Translations under genes and position numbers: made by a program
NCBI GenBank assembly: GCA_964655195.1
Contig: CAZZLK010000021.1
Span: 3,377 to 67,376, forward strand
Source: an uncultured bacterium
GTDB taxonomy: Bacteria > DUMJ01
Direction of reading: 5' to 3'
Length of the DNA stretch: 64,000 nt
Notes under the pieces: model-generated
Databases searched by the model: none
Told to the model about the DNA's origin: nothing
The model's input: the letters and a program-made list of their open reading frames with translations, nothing else
Shown here: positions 1,377 through 12,982 of the stretch, piece after piece
Numbering within the stretch: the first letter of the stretch is position 1
Layout of the letters: each line of letters opens with the position of its first letter

Positions 1377-3288
1377 TATTCTTATAGATAGAAATGCCCC
1401 GAAAGATTTGATTTTTTCTTATTCTTCGAATAACGTCCTCCGGATAGGAGATTATGTTGCGGTTCTCTTAAAGGGACATCTGGCGAAAGGTTATGTAATA
1501 AAAGAAAACAAGGAAGTATCTGTCCAAGACTCAAAGATGGTCTTGGACAGAATATTTGATGTGCCTTTAGTCTTACCCCATCTTTTAGATCTTGCATATT
1601 GGATTTCTGAGTATTATATATGTAATCTCTCTCAGGCATTAGCAACAGTAATTCCCCCAGAGATAAGGAATATAGATGTAAAATATGATGGTACCTTAAA
1701 AGTTAAGGTGCCAAAAACAAGAAGAAAGAAAAAGAAAAAAGGTTATGCAGGTTACATACCCCTTTCTGACTATGAAACTCCTCTTCTAGGGGAATACAGA
1801 AATCTTTTAGTAAAGCTTCCAATCGAAGAGAGGCTTAGTGTCTACTTGAAACTTATAGAAAAAGAAAGAGATAATGGCAAAGGAGTAGTTGTACTATTCC
1901 CCGAAGTAGATACCCTCCTAGCAGTAGAAGATAAGTTTAGAAAGGAATATGAAGGGGATATCGCCATGTTATACAGTGGACAGAGCCCTGCAGTAAAGAA
2001 TGAGGAATGGTGGCGTATAAGGTATGGCAAGGTTAAAATAGTCTTAGGAACCAGATCAGCCATATTTGCCCCACTAGAAAATCTAGGATTGATAATTATT
2101 GATGGGGAAGAGAGTGACAGCTATAAAGATGAGAGTAGACCTCTCTATGATGCTAGGACGATAGCTTACAGGATTCAAGAATTGTTAGGATGTAAGGTTA
2201 TATTTGGAAGCAGTACCCCTTCATTGGATACATATAAGAGGGTCACAGAGAACAGAATAAATATCATTACCGAAGATAGAACAAGGGATCTGAGTAATAT
2301 AAAATCAGTAAATATGAAAGGGAGAAGGGGTTTTCTCAGCAGAGAACTGATACATTATTGCAAGGTCTCCTTGGCTAGAAAAAAACAGATACTTATACTG
2401 GTCAATAGAAAGGGATATTTTACCCTTGAAGTCTGTAAGAATTGTGGGTATATCGAGAGATGCCCAAACTGTAATATTGCGCTAGTATATCATAAGGATG
2501 AAGGACTTGAATGTCACTACTGCGGATATAGTATAGATAAAATGGATCAGTGTCCAGAATGTGGGGGAAAAATGGAACTGTTTGGTTACGGTGTAGAGAG
2601 GATAGAAGAGATACTACAGAAGATATTCCCTAAAGCTAGAATAGCCAGAATGGATGCAGACCTTCCCACCAAAGAGATTAACGAGATATGGGAGAGATTC
2701 ATAAACGGGAATATAGACATTCTGGTTGGAACGCAGATGATAGCGAAGGGTTTTCGTCTCCCAAATGTTGCCCTAACTGGAATTTTAGCCTCAGACTTGG
2801 CTCTGAATCTACCTGACTTCAAAGTTAGCGAAAGAATCTTTCAGCTTATATATAGCTTGGCTGAACAAACAGGGAATAACAAATATTTAGTGATTCAGAG
2901 TATGCTTCCCAGTTATTATCCTATAAAGTATGCGAGCAGGTTGGATTATGAGAGCTTCTACAGATATGAATCTCAACTACGGAGGTCTCTTGGATATCCT
3001 CCCTATAGTCACATAGTAAGAATAGTCGTCTCCGGAAAAGATGAGGAGAGTGTAAAAACTATAGCGGCCTCTCTAGCTCTTGACATAGAGAGAAGATTGA
3101 GGATAGACTATTCAGGGCCTGCTAGATGTCCTTTCTATAGGATAAAAAAGACATTTCACTGGCATATTCTTTTGAAGATAAAAGACCTAACTGTAGACAT
3201 AATGAAAGTTGTAAAAGAACTTGTAGGGGCTTATAATTATAAAGACATTGGTATAATGGTAGACGTAGATCCTGTGTCTATGTTATAG
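1360..3288 (+). CDS. priA: Primosomal protein N' (PriA) homolog with degenerate ATPase/helicase motifs
   Basis: N-terminal 3' DNA-binding-domain-like region. Cys-rich zinc module [38 protein letters not shown]. PriA-like blocks GTRSAIF and GTQMIAKGF. Overlaps metK by 17 nt. No Walker A: [14 protein letters not shown] sits where GVTGSGKTEVYL is expected. The DEEH box reads DGEE at nt 2101-2112. The arginine-finger region reads AEQTGNNK. Confidence 0.85.
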
Positions 3289-3309
3289 ATACCTCAGGAG
3301 GGAAAATAT

Positions 3310-3774
3310 ATGTCGGGAGTAGCGATAAGAATTTACGGGGATCCAGTTTTAAGGCAGAAGGCTGTTCCTGTAAATAAGATAGATAGAAGGATAAAGAGGC
3401 TTGTTAGATATATGGAAGAAGCTATGGAAAAGGCTAATGGGATTGGCTTAGCCGCTCCTCAGGTAGGAGTAAGTGAGAGGGTTATTATAGTAAAGATAAG
3501 ATCCCCTATAGTTGTAGTAAATCCAGTAATTACTTATATGGAGGGAGAAGAACTAGGAGAAGAGGGCTGTTTAAGTATTCCAAATGTCGTTGGAGATGTA
3601 AGTAGGGCAACTAGAATTATAGTTAAGGGATTAGATCTAAATGAGAGGGAGATAGAGATAGAGGCAAATAATCTTTCTGCTAGAGCATTTCAACACGAAA
3701 TTGATCATCTAGATGGCATACTATTTATAGATAGAGCCATATCTATAAGGAAGGTGGAAAAATCCTCAGAATAG
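3310..3774 (+). CDS. def: Peptide deformylase
   Basis: Motifs GIGLAAPQVG, EGCLSIP and QHEIDHLDG. 154 aa. GGAGGG SD upstream. Confidence 0.93.
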   Translation: MSGVAIRIYGDPVLRQKAVPVNKIDRRIKRLVRYMEEAMEKANGIGLAAPQVGVSERVIIVKIRSPIVVVNPVITYMEGEELGEEGCLSIPNVVGDVSRATRIIVKGLDLNEREIEIEANNLSARAFQHEIDHLDGILFIDRAISIRKVEKSSE

Positions 3775-4676
3775 TATTTTGGGGCACTCCAGAATTTGCT
3801 CTCCCATCTTTAGAAAGGTTAAAGGATAAGATATCCCTGGTGATCACTAAACCGGATAAACCTCAGGGGAGAGGATTAAAACTAAAGCCTTCTCCAGTTA
3901 AATCGAAGGCGTTAGAGCTTAATATACCTGTACTCTCTCCGGAAAAGTTGAGCGAGATAAAAGATAAACTTTCAGGGTTTGACCTTGGTATAGTGGTGGC
4001 TTATGGACTTATTATTCCAAAGAAGATAATAGATATGTTTCCAAAGGGTATTATAAATCTCCATCCATCTCTCCTTCCTAAATACAGGGGACCTGCTCCA
4101 ATACAGTGGGCAATAATGAATGGAGAAGAAGAGACTGGGGTTAGTATAATATACCTTACTGAAGAATTAGATGCTGGAGACATCATCTTACAGGAAAGAG
4201 TCAAAATCTTTCCAGAAGACACAACAGAAACTCTCTCTGAAAGGTTAAGTATGATTGGTGCAGAGGTACTGGAGAGGGCTATAGGACTGATAGAAACAGG
4301 TAGTATAAATCCTATCCCTCAGGAACTCCTAGGGACCGTATCCTATGCTCCAAAGATCGACCCGGAGATGGGTAAAATTATCTGGAATGCCAGGAGTAAA
4401 GACATCGTAAACAAGATTCGAGCCCTTACCCCCTGGCCTAAGGCATATTTCTACAGATGTGGATTAAGAATAAATATTTTAGAGGGGGAACCTTCTCCTA
4501 TAAAAGGAGAACCAGGAAGAGTCATAAGTGTTGAAGAAAAGGGGATATTAGTTGGGACTCAAGATGGAAGTGTGTGGATCAAAAAGGTCCAACCAGAAAG
4601 TAGAAAGGTCATCAGTGGATATGATTTTGCCAATGGTTATAGGATAAAAGAGGGAAGTTTTTTAGCAGATGAATAA
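3762..4676 (+). CDS. fmt: Methionyl-tRNA formyltransferase; proposed non-canonical ATC start
   Basis: The ORF track starts at an internal GTG (3840). The same frame is open from 3735 and encodes the canonical Fmt N-terminus (I)LRIVFWGTPEFALPSLERL. There is no ATG/GTG/TTG in that stretch. ATC at 3762 sits 4 nt after an AAGGAAGGTGG SD-like element and overlaps the def stop. Catalytic region HPSLLPKYRG is present. Confidence 0.8.
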   Translation: MLRIVFWGTPEFALPSLERLKDKISLVITKPDKPQGRGLKLKPSPVKSKALELNIPVLSPEKLSEIKDKLSGFDLGIVVAYGLIIPKKIIDMFPKGIINLHPSLLPKYRGPAPIQWAIMNGEEETGVSIIYLTEELDAGDIILQERVKIFPEDTTETLSERLSMIGAEVLERAIGLIETGSINPIPQELLGTVSYAPKIDPEMGKIIWNARSKDIVNKIRALTPWPKAYFYRCGLRINILEGEPSPIKGEPGRVISVEEKGILVGTQDGSVWIKKVQPESRKVISGYDFANGYRIKEGSFLADE

Positions 4677-5931
4677 GATAATAGAAGCTAAGAAGATAGC
4701 TTACGAGATTCTCCTATCAGTGGAAAGAAAGATGTCTTATGCTAATACCTTAATGAGAGAGAGATTGAGTGAAATCCCTTCAATATACAATCCCCTTATA
4801 ACTGATATTGTATATGGGGTATTGAGAAGAAAGAATACATTAGACTGGTATATATCAAACTTCGTAAAAACAGAAAGGTTAGACCTAGGTCTCCTTACAA
4901 TCCTTCGTATAGGAGCTTATCAGATTTTGTACCACAGTACTCCTATACCACTTGTGGTGAATGAGGCTGTAGAAATGGGGAAGATTCTAGTAAGTAGGAA
5001 GGCTAGCAGATTAATAAATGCAGTACTTAGAAGGATAGCAACTACCGATCTAAAGCCAGAAGAAAAAACAATAGTCTATTCCCATCCTAAATGGCTTATA
5101 GACAAATGGGAAAAGGAGTTGGGAGAAGAAGATACAAGATTACTGTGTGAGAGGAACAATAACCCTATGCCACTAAGCTTCCGGGTGAATGTCTTAAAAA
5201 CAGATATAGAGACAATAGAGACCGCTCTTACTAAAAGAGGATTAACCGTTACAAGAGGTAAGTTTAGCAGAAATTGCCTAATCTTAAAGGAGGGAGAGAT
5301 AACCCCTATAGTGGAGCTAGAAGATGAGGGTAAGGTTTTTATTCAGTCAGAGCCATCAATGGTTGTAGTAGAGCTATTGGATCTTAACCCTGGACTCAGA
5401 GTTTTAGATGGATGTTCTGGCATCGGAGGTAAAACCACCTACATCGCAGAACTTATGTCAAATATCGGAGAGATCATTGCTGTAGACAAAGTTAAAGACA
5501 AATTAAAATTCCTTAAAGCACTGGCTATCAAGAGGAACATATCAATAATTAGGAGTATTGAGAGCCCAGTAGAAGATCTGAAACCCGAAGAGATAGGATA
5601 TTTTGACAGGATATTGCTAGACGTCCCCTGCTCGGGGTTAGGCACTCTTTCTAGAAAGCCAGAGATAAAATGGAGGCTAAGAATAGATGATATCAGTAAG
5701 TTGTCTGAGATGCAGAAGAAGATACTCAATAGTGGTTCTAAGTTTTTGAAGCCTGGAGGAATCCTAATCTATAGCGCCTGTACAATCTCTAGAGAAGAAA
5801 CTTATGATATAATAAAATCGTTTATAAGTGAAAATAGAGATTATTTTCTTATAGAGGAAAGACAATTCCTCCCACATATAGATGATGTGGAGGGGTTTTA
5901 TATAGCCAAAATTCGGAGAGGCTATGCGTAG
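4669..5931 (+). CDS. rsmB: 16S rRNA (cytosine967-C5)-methyltransferase RsmB/Sun (NusB-like N-terminal domain plus MTase)
   Basis: Motif DVPCSGLGTLSRKPEIKWR and a C-terminal SAM-MTase fold. Position after fmt is as in many bacteria. Confidence 0.88.
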   Translation: MNKIIEAKKIAYEILLSVERKMSYANTLMRERLSEIPSIYNPLITDIVYGVLRRKNTLDWYISNFVKTERLDLGLLTILRIGAYQILYHSTPIPLVVNEAVEMGKILVSRKASRLINAVLRRIATTDLKPEEKTIVYSHPKWLIDKWEKELGEEDTRLLCERNNNPMPLSFRVNVLKTDIETIETALTKRGLTVTRGKFSRNCLILKEGEITPIVELEDEGKVFIQSEPSMVVVELLDLNPGLRVLDGCSGIGGKTTYIAELMSNIGEIIAVDKVKDKLKFLKALAIKRNISIIRSIESPVEDLKPEEIGYFDRILLDVPCSGLGTLSRKPEIKWRLRIDDISKLSEMQKKILNSGSKFLKPGGILIYSACTISREETYDIIKSFISENRDYFLIEERQFLPHIDDVEGFYIAKIRRGYA

Positions 5932-11500: not shown

Positions 11501-11699
11501 GAAACCTTATGGGATATGGAGGTATATAGGTATAGCATTTTCCCTAGGTTTTACAATAGTCGCTTCTATACTTGTAGGCTTATATATAGGGGGATTCTTG
11601 GATAAAAAGCTACTTACTGGTTACTCTTTTAGAGTTCTTTTTATGTTTATTGGAGCTTTTACTGGATTGAGAAGTATATACAGGCAATACAGGAAGTGA
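11472..11699 (+). CDS. Small two-TM membrane protein, AtpZ-like (ATP synthase operon gene 1 family)
   Basis: 75 aa with two predicted TM helices, immediately upstream of atpI. Resembles AtpZ/ATPase_gene1 proteins in size and topology only. Confidence 0.45.
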   Translation: MKSLMSLNLKKPYGIWRYIGIAFSLGFTIVASILVGLYIGGFLDKKLLTGYSFRVLFMFIGAFTGLRSIYRQYRK

Positions 11700-12693: not shown

Positions 12694-12715
12694 AGTTTGG
12701 AGGTGAAACATATCT

Positions 12716-12982
12716 ATGTTGACAGGTAAAGTATTAGTAATAATAGCTTCTGTAATATCAGCCGGATTTGGAATGGGAATGGCAGTATTGGGTGGAGCCC
12801 TTGGCGAAGGAAATGCTGTCTCCAAAGCGATGGAGTCTCTAGGGAGACAACCGGAGGCTCAAAGTTCTATTATGACAGTATTACTTCTGGGGCTTGCATT
12901 TATAGAATCACTGGTAATATTTATGCTAGTTGTAGCACTTGTATTGATCTTTGTGAATCCTTTTGTGGGGATGGTTCAATAG
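12716..12982 (+). CDS. atpE: F0F1 ATP synthase subunit c
   Basis: 88 aa hairpin proteolipid with the ion-binding Glu in [10 protein letters not shown]. Confidence 0.9.

Follow-up and report, generated by a model that had tools for sequence, protein, structure and literature searches.

The def-fmt locus

The DNA analysed here (the window, 64,000 nucleotides (nt) in length) comes from an uncultured bacterium of the GTDB lineage DUMJ01 (assembly GCA_964655195.1, contig CAZZLK010000021.1). It carries fmt, the gene for methionyl-tRNA formyltransferase (Fmt), which formylates the initiator tRNA, directly behind def, the gene for peptide deformylase, in the order priA-def-fmt-rsmB-rlmN, which was read from the list of open reading frames (ORFs) and from Pfam-matched genes in related loci. 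The neighbours def, rsmB and rlmN have ATG starts, whereas for fmt we propose a near-cognate ATC codon inside the end of def. The features of the locus are listed below. Pairing energies of Shine-Dalgarno (SD) sequences, here and throughout, refer to an assumed anti-SD sequence of the usual form, CACCUCCUU.

3310..3774, + strand: def (peptide deformylase), 154 amino acids (aa), PF01327 with E 6e-47; ATG start with a GGAGGG SD (-10.8 kcal/mol), TAG stop at 3772-3774
3747..3757, + strand: fmt SD sequence AAGGAAGGTGG, within the 3' end of def (def codons R-K-V-E); -11.5 kcal/mol, 4-nt spacer
3762..3764, + strand: proposed fmt initiation codon ATC, near-cognate; ATC, ATT or ATA at the homologous place in 25 of 25 related loci
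3762..4676, + strand: re-annotated fmt (methionyl-tRNA formyltransferase), 304 aa, MLRIVFWGTPEF..., TAA stop at 4674-4676
3762..3774, + strand: def/fmt overlap of 13 nt, a geometry expected of translational coupling
3765..3839, + strand: fmt codons 2-26, encoding beta1 (residues 4-8), alpha1 (11-19) and the onset of beta2 (24-28); lost under a start at GTG 3840
3771..3773, + strand: ATA, alternative start that would overlap the def stop as ATAG; unlikely to be the main start
3840..3842, + strand: GTG, first canonical in-frame codon and gene-caller start; rejected
4669..5931, + strand: rsmB, with an ATG start that overlaps the fmt stop; neighbour in the priA-def-fmt-rsmB-rlmN operon

By direct reading, the fmt frame is open back to a TAG at 3732-3734 and contains no ATG, GTG or TTG between 3735 and 3839, as a first-pass annotation of the sequence had stated with coordinates that all proved right. 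Its codons run TAG (3732-3734) AGC CAT ATC TAT AAG GAA GGT GGA AAA ATC (3762) CTC AGA ATA (3771) GTA TTT TGG GGC ACT CCA GAA TTT ... CTG GTG (3840) ATC ACT, and the translation after the stop is *SHIYKEGGKILRIVFWGTPEFALPSLERLKDKISLVITKPD. The earliest canonical in-frame codon is the GTG at 3840, which the ORF lister used and which gives a protein of 278 aa. The ATC at 3762-3764 had been described as lying 4 nt behind AAGGAAGGTGG and overlapping the def stop, and this can be read off directly: AAGGAAGGTGG occupies 3747-3757, AAAA follows, then comes ATC, and def (from its ATG at 3310) stops at TAG 3772-3774, 10 nt past the ATC. The def frame is the fmt frame +1. In random codons, a run of 35 without a canonical start has an expected chance of about 0.19, which is not improbable by itself; in the window, which has 63 ORFs of 90 aa or more, no other open leader is as long. 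The weight of the missing canonical start comes from the homology of the upstream codons, not from the length of the leader.

The canonical start codon is absent from related fmt genes

We compared the window with 25 related loci from Logan, ENA, JGI and NCBI assemblies, which represent about 13 lineages and encode Fmt proteins with 63-99% identity to that of the window. The DNA of these relatives was taken from protein-search matches, and a metagenome scan with the alignment of this clade gave at least three further clade loci. A scan of a genome collection with the window protein alone returned only relatives of at most 46% identity, because its peptide patterns were too specific; these relatives were used as controls.

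All 25 related loci lacked a canonical fmt start and carried ATC, ATT or ATA (ATH) at the homologous place, 6-7 codons ahead of an invariant Gly. The conserved N-terminus [IVL]VF[FWL]G[TS]PEF was coded in frame 5' of any canonical start in all of them, and the first canonical in-frame codon lay 16-142 codons 3' of the ATH codon, at positions that were non-homologous among the relatives. This comparison of ortholog start regions, one of the checks proposed in the first-pass annotation, did not yield a canonical codon in any related locus. The codon was ATC in the window and in L081/L082/L103, L088, L089-L091/L104, L094-L096, L097/L098, L099 and L100/L101/L106, it was ATT in L084, L085-L087 and L092/L093, and it was ATA in L083 and L105, which stem from two independent samples. 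In a neighbour-joining tree, ATC was ancestral, and ATT and ATA each marked one subclade. An in-frame TGA lies 1-2 codons 5' of the ATC in four lineages (L088, L089, L094 and L097), and therefore the start cannot be further upstream there.

A single-base difference would suffice to turn the codon at 3762 into ATG, and the first-pass annotation had raised a miscall of ATG to ATC, by sequencing or assembly error, as an explanation. However, three loci of 94-99% identity from independent assemblies (Logan for L081, ENA for L082 and JGI for L103) carry the same ATC, the relative P0001 was called at the same GTG, and every other lineage has ATC, ATT or ATA. With the codon shared among independent Logan, ENA, JGI and NCBI assemblies, we consider such an error ruled out for practical purposes.

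The controls were 149 fmt loci from outside the clade in which the motif could be recognised, and 140 of them had a canonical codon at the expected place (ATG in 100, GTG in 34 and TTG in 6), usually about two codons ahead of the I/V-I/V-F motif. The nearest outgroup, L102, whose Fmt is 50% identical, has an ordinary ATGA stop/start overlap.

Two broader explanations were considered and rejected. An altered code in which the upstream TGA is a sense codon does not suit the window, which uses all three stops (TAA/TGA/TAG 18/10/10), and there is no canonical start further upstream anyway. For genome-wide relaxed start usage, we examined the six remaining ORFs whose open leaders span 20 codons or more; four of them have Pfam hits, and in each of these four the canonical start precedes the domains. 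Within the window sequence, the start anomaly is specific to fmt and is not a genome-wide habit.

In the three deepest lineages, an extra gene of about 200 aa assigned to PF19928 (DUF6391) lies between fmt and rsmB (L094 2860-3471, L099 2708-3319 and L100 2656-3240). It is absent from the window and the closer relatives, whose fmt and rsmB overlap.

The codons upstream of GTG 3840 encode the Fmt N-terminus

The fmt product matches PF00551 (E 6e-41) and PF02911 (E 1e-25), and its best PDB matches are all Fmt. Against the equivalog model TIGR00460, the 304-aa form scores 281 bits (cut-off 201.5), with residues 2-294 aligned to positions 1-305 of 315. In alignments to solved Fmt structures (4iqf, 3tqq, 1fmt and others; E 6e-60 for 4iqf), the match starts at residue 2 of the query, opposite residues 3-5 of the structures. 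The formyltransferase catalytic core (N...H...D and the HPSLLPxxRG motif) is present together with the N-terminal beta1-loop-alpha1. Residues N99, H101, P102, S103, L104-L105, P106, Y108-G110 and D137 are invariant in the clade, and most of them (H101, S103, L105, P106, Y108-G110 and D137) stay unchanged in the wider alignment of homologues too. Judged from the full-length equivalog match and the intact catalytic core, the fmt product is a methionyl-tRNA formyltransferase.

An AlphaFold2 model built on 35 homologues had a mean predicted local distance difference test score (pLDDT) of 95.7 and placed beta1 at residues 4-8, alpha1 at 11-19 and beta2 at 24-28, a block with pLDDT of 96-98. The first-pass annotation had held that the Fmt N-terminus is encoded 5' of the GTG at 3840, and this is borne out: residue 2 of the 304-aa form corresponds to position 1 of TIGR00460, and the first strand-helix-strand lies upstream of the GTG. 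According to the model, a start at GTG 3840 would cost the Rossmann-like catalytic core its beta1, its alpha1 and most of its beta2.

To describe the selection on these upstream codons, we pooled 12 lineages. Codons 2-26 (3765-3839 in the window) showed a proportion of synonymous differences (pS) of 0.65, a proportion of nonsynonymous differences (pN) of 0.155 and a ratio of nonsynonymous to synonymous divergence (dN/dS) of 0.117, which is indistinguishable from the dN/dS of 0.107 in the rest of the gene. Synonymous divergence across fmt in the clade is near-saturated, and synonymous changes occur even inside the invariant residues of the upstream segment (Gly as GGC/GGT/GGA/GGG, Thr as ACT/ACC/ACA and Pro as CCA/CCT/CCC/CCG). 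The sequence comparison thus showed that codons 2-26 are coding and under purifying selection like the remaining gene, and a dN/dS of 0.117 at a pS of 0.65 indicates that they are translated.

These data bear on two further explanations. If the GTG at 3840 were the true start, the 278-aa Fmt would lack its first strand and helix, and the homology further upstream would be vestigial. The GTG is the first canonical in-frame codon, and the 278-aa form, which begins at model position 31, still exceeds the TIGR00460 cut-off with 261 bits. However, this codon has no SD sequence (-4.7 kcal/mol, spacer 12). Of the 12 aligned lineages, 8 have GTT, GTC or GTA in its place, and there the first canonical codon is up to 142 codons 3'. 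Together with the constraint on the 25 upstream codons and the structural elements that would be removed, this makes a start at GTG 3840 very improbable. The absence of a canonical start could also mean that fmt is a decaying pseudogene that has lost its start codon. However, the 304-codon frame is intact in all lineages, dN/dS is about 0.11 across the gene, the catalytic HPSLLPKYRG region is invariant, and the start-less state persists down to 63% identity, leaving next to no probability for decay.

Three further observations concern the N-terminal part of the protein. The connection between alpha1 and beta2 is shortened in the Fmt of the clade (LERLKDK-ISLV vs the usual L..L...G.EVV.VVT; 3819-3839 in the window, residues 20-26). 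Because of this shortened connection, the local alignment to PF00551 leaves out everything before residue 30 of the extended ORF, a gap that could on its own lead start prediction astray. Position 7 of the window Fmt is Trp (VFWGT), whereas it is Phe or Leu in all clade relatives.

A strong ribosome-binding site lies inside the end of def

In every lineage, the 22 nt 5' of the ATH codon paired with the assumed anti-SD at -10.2 to -11.9 kcal/mol with a spacer of 4-10 nt, and the fmt SD is as strong as that of def itself. The SD core A-G-G-A-[A/G]-G-G is kept in all lineages though it codes for a variable Def tail, R-[KR]-[VTA]-E. Counted from the A of the ATH codon, the def stop of the relatives follows at a distance of 4-10 nt, and the third base of the ATH codon serves at the same time as the second base of a codon in the def tail (Ser/Phe/Tyr). 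A near-cognate codon at a proper SD distance is conserved among the fmt orthologues, and the fmt start stands a few nucleotides from the def stop with its SD inside def, which is the geometry of a coupled pair. No terminator-like sites were found at 3000-5000, and promoter-like matches there were no commoner than in shuffled sequence. Rfam and tRNA scans of the whole window returned no family and no tRNA.

The spacing from the SD also separates ATC 3762 from the ATA at 3771. A start at this ATA would overlap the def stop as ATAG and would give MVFWGTPEF..., three residues shorter. The codon is also near-cognate, its 4-nt stop/start overlap is a classic coupling geometry (cf. the common ATGA), ATA occurs at the homologous place in most lineages, and NCBI picked the homologous codon in the relative P0003 ('MVFFGTPEF'; ATA at 1326 in L083). 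However, it lies 13 nt from the SD, vs 4 nt for ATC 3762, and its homologue is TTA in L088, L089 and L097 and GTA in L100, which are non-initiators. Moreover, in the ATT lineages L084, L085 and L092 the def stop is a TAA further upstream and no ATAG overlap exists, and the start would fall inside beta1. We therefore agree with the first-pass annotation, which had ranked ATA 3771 below ATC 3762 and which is supported here by TTA or GTA in four lineages. A main start at the ATA is improbable, and where its homologue is present it could serve as a minor secondary start at best.

No fmt start would be needed at all if ribosomes made a Def-Fmt fusion by a -1 slip on the A-run GGAAAAAUC (3756-3764), with the SD-like element upstream acting as a stimulator. 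The fmt frame is indeed the def frame -1, and the run of five A after an SD-like element in the window lineage loosely resembles dnaX. However, the locus lacks an X XXY YYZ heptamer, L088 (GAGGAATCATC), L089, L094 and L099 do not have the A-run, and the in-frame TGA in L088, L089, L094 and L097 leaves 1-3 codons to shift, without a slippery sequence. No Def-Fmt fusion protein was found among 7381 homologues. We regard programmed frameshifting as very improbable at this locus.

The ATC at 3741 was also tried as a start and rejected. No SD precedes it (-2.1 kcal/mol), and relatives have CTC or TTC in its place.

An apparent CTG start codon in Gemmatimonadaceae

Nine Gemmatimonadaceae metagenome-assembled genomes have CTG at the fmt start place (L046, L051, L056, L059, L062, L063, L075, L076 and L077). 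In L059, L076 and L077 a single nucleotide (1 nt) separates the CTG from the def stop, in the other six the two are adjacent, and an SD sequence (GAGGAG) lies 6-7 nt 5' of the CTG (...GAGGAGctcTAG CTG CGC GTC GTC TTC TGG...). These loci have no canonical codon before a GTG about 29 codons downstream. In L046, for example, the def TAG is at 2998-3000 and the CTG at 3001-3003, and the first canonical codon, GTG 3088, would delete 29 residues. Like the clade, these genomes encode a conserved LRVVFWGTPEF upstream of any canonical start, with a near-cognate codon at the def stop; unlike the clade, they use CTG and belong to an unrelated high-GC phylum. The CTG case is younger, because sister genomes have ATG (L067, L072, L041 and L026), GTG (L079 and L080) or TTG (L038) at the same position. 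Judged from these sequences, the CTG of these Gemmatimonadaceae appears to be a second, independent weak fmt start.

Probable initiation at AUC and its possible role

Taken together, these sequence comparisons make it very probable that fmt is a full-length, functional gene whose translation starts at the near-cognate AUC at 3762-3764 and yields the 304-aa protein MLRIVFWGTPEF.... The first-pass annotation had already named ATC 3762 as the best candidate, and the choice is strengthened by ATH in 25 of 25 loci, the strong SD, the upstream TGA in four lineages and the selected N-terminal codons. On this comparative evidence, the clade-wide ATH start of fmt is a real, rare but known kind of weak start codon.

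As a possible mechanism, the strong SD AAGGAAGGTGG within the end of def would set the P site of the 30S subunit on AUC 3762, where the initiator formylmethionyl-tRNA (fMet-tRNA; anticodon CAU) would pair with the first two bases of the codon. Ribosomes that end def would probably also re-initiate at the fmt start (translational coupling), because this start lies just upstream of the def stop, by 10 nt. The overlap of the two genes is consistent with such coupling. The weak start codon would hold Fmt low relative to Def, tie it to def translation and make it sensitive to initiation factor 3 (IF3). We infer the reading of AUC by the initiator tRNA, the coupling to def and the low Fmt output from the arrangement of the locus. 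In Escherichia coli, AUC, AUU and AUA initiate at about 1-2% of the level of AUG, and an AUC-started product has an N-terminal Met (10.1101/063800). IF3 selects against near-cognate AUH codons (AUC, AUU and AUA) as starts (Sacerdot 1996, as cited in PMC2268962; 10.1101/063800). Re-initiation in E. coli needs formylated initiator tRNA and initiation factor 2 (IF2), and excess IF3 inhibits it, as it does non-canonical starts (PMC2268962).

Several points weigh against a start at AUC 3762 or limit how closely it can be placed. Two tandem ATC codons in L088 and L089 make the exact start codon ambiguous there, and the ATC of L097 comes one codon later than in L088 and L089, which means that the start drifts by one codon among lineages. 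ATC, ATT and ATA are synonymous Ile codons, and the third-base pattern alone is no proof of a start. Only two third-base changes were placed on the tree (C to T and C to A), from which selection against ATG is not demonstrable. The pairing energies depend on the assumed anti-SD, the window holding no 16S rRNA gene. Near-cognate starts are weak in E. coli, at 1-2% of AUG, yet Fmt is normally needed. Finally, the support consists of sequence comparison and predicted structure, and the organisms are uncultured.

The start can be compared with several known systems. The infC gene, which encodes IF3 and starts with AUU in E. coli and many other bacteria, resembles fmt of the clade in being a translation-initiation gene with a near-cognate AUH start conserved among relatives. 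However, the AUU of infC is the sensor of a demonstrated autoregulatory loop of IF3, whereas for fmt the feedback logic is not obvious and a loop would be only conjectural; the fmt codon is also mostly AUC, varies among AUC, AUU and AUA, and sits inside an overlapping upstream gene. The pcnB gene (poly(A) polymerase I) of E. coli likewise has a near-cognate AUU start, which keeps the enzyme low. It is an unrelated gene that is uncoupled to an upstream ORF, and its start has been proven experimentally, whereas that of fmt is predicted here from sequence. These two are the only confirmed non-canonical starts in E. coli (10.1101/063800), and the clade-wide ATH start of fmt is an addition to this known class.

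The same gene order and neighbours are found in the def-fmt(-rsmB) operon of E. coli, Bacillus subtilis and most bacteria (PMC7264889). These canonical operons differ from the clade in the fmt start itself, as illustrated by the 140 of 149 non-clade loci with ATG, GTG or TTG and by the ATGA of the outgroup L102. Coupling at overlapping stop/start pairs has been described (Huber et al. 2019, as cited in PMC7264889; Yoo & RajBhandary 2008, PMC2268962), and the clade resembles such termination-reinitiation cases in that its fmt start lies 4-10 nt 5' of the upstream stop with the SD inside the upstream gene. However, the described cases use AUG, GUG or UUG, whereas fmt here uses AUH. We found no description of re-initiation at a conserved AUH codon in the searchable literature, and our literature searches for a non-canonical fmt start or for natural bacterial ATC starts returned nothing specific.

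It is conceivable, though we think it unlikely, that the weak fmt start is not a defect that is tolerated but has been selected for regulation, which would give fmt an infC-like feedback on the fidelity of initiation or on the capacity for formylation. Fmt would then come from re-initiation at the AUH codon near the def stop, gated by IF3 discrimination and by the supply of IF2 and fMet-tRNA. The persistence of the ATH state through near-saturated synonymous divergence fits such regulation without proving it, and so does the independent CTG start beside the def stop in Gemmatimonadaceae.

Other features of the window

Outside the def-fmt locus, glyA (serine hydroxymethyltransferase, PF00464, 47515-48756), a gene of one-carbon/folate metabolism, has an ATG with an SD despite 26 open upstream codons. 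The tightly packed, mostly overlapping gene array is interrupted by two long gaps, at 11501-11695 (195 nt) and 12694-12982 (289 nt). The ORF after the first gap (GTG 11696, 117 aa) has 21 open upstream codons and no Pfam hit.

Consequences for annotation and significance

Gene callers that accept canonical starts only cut fmt, a gene of an essential pathway, by 3 to 96 residues across this whole uncultured clade, and by 26 residues in the window. All sixteen protein clusters (formed at 90% identity) with at least 60% identity to the window Fmt were called short, at 208-301 aa compared with a normal length of about 305 aa, and the called N-termini of close Fmt relatives differ and look arbitrary. 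The records concerned include P0003, P0004, P0007 and P0122-P0126 (loci L083, L084 and L089). In the L089 cluster, NCBI already gives the 304-aa form, 'MIRLVFFG...', in two records (MBP8637624.1 and HHV80425.1), one of them labelled Dictyoglomota bacterium. Other records of this cluster have forms of 291 aa, 280 aa (a partial record), 268 aa and 248 aa, and one and the same 93,687-bp contig yields the 248-aa form when another gene caller is used. Some NCBI records of relatives use internal ATA or ATC starts (MVFFGTPEF..., MPSLEELK... and MPSLEYL...). The NCBI records of a single species cluster carry three different fmt N-termini. They would be corrected by an annotation rule that places the fmt start at the ATH codon behind the SD in def.

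Established bacterial non-canonical starts are a handful (infC and pcnB in E. coli). The fmt gene of this clade offers a clean natural test case, in which a near-cognate start is deeply conserved in an initiation gene and stands inside a stop/start overlap. It could show how a strong SD and translational coupling permit initiation at AUH codons, and whether the dosage of Fmt is tied to the fidelity of initiation.

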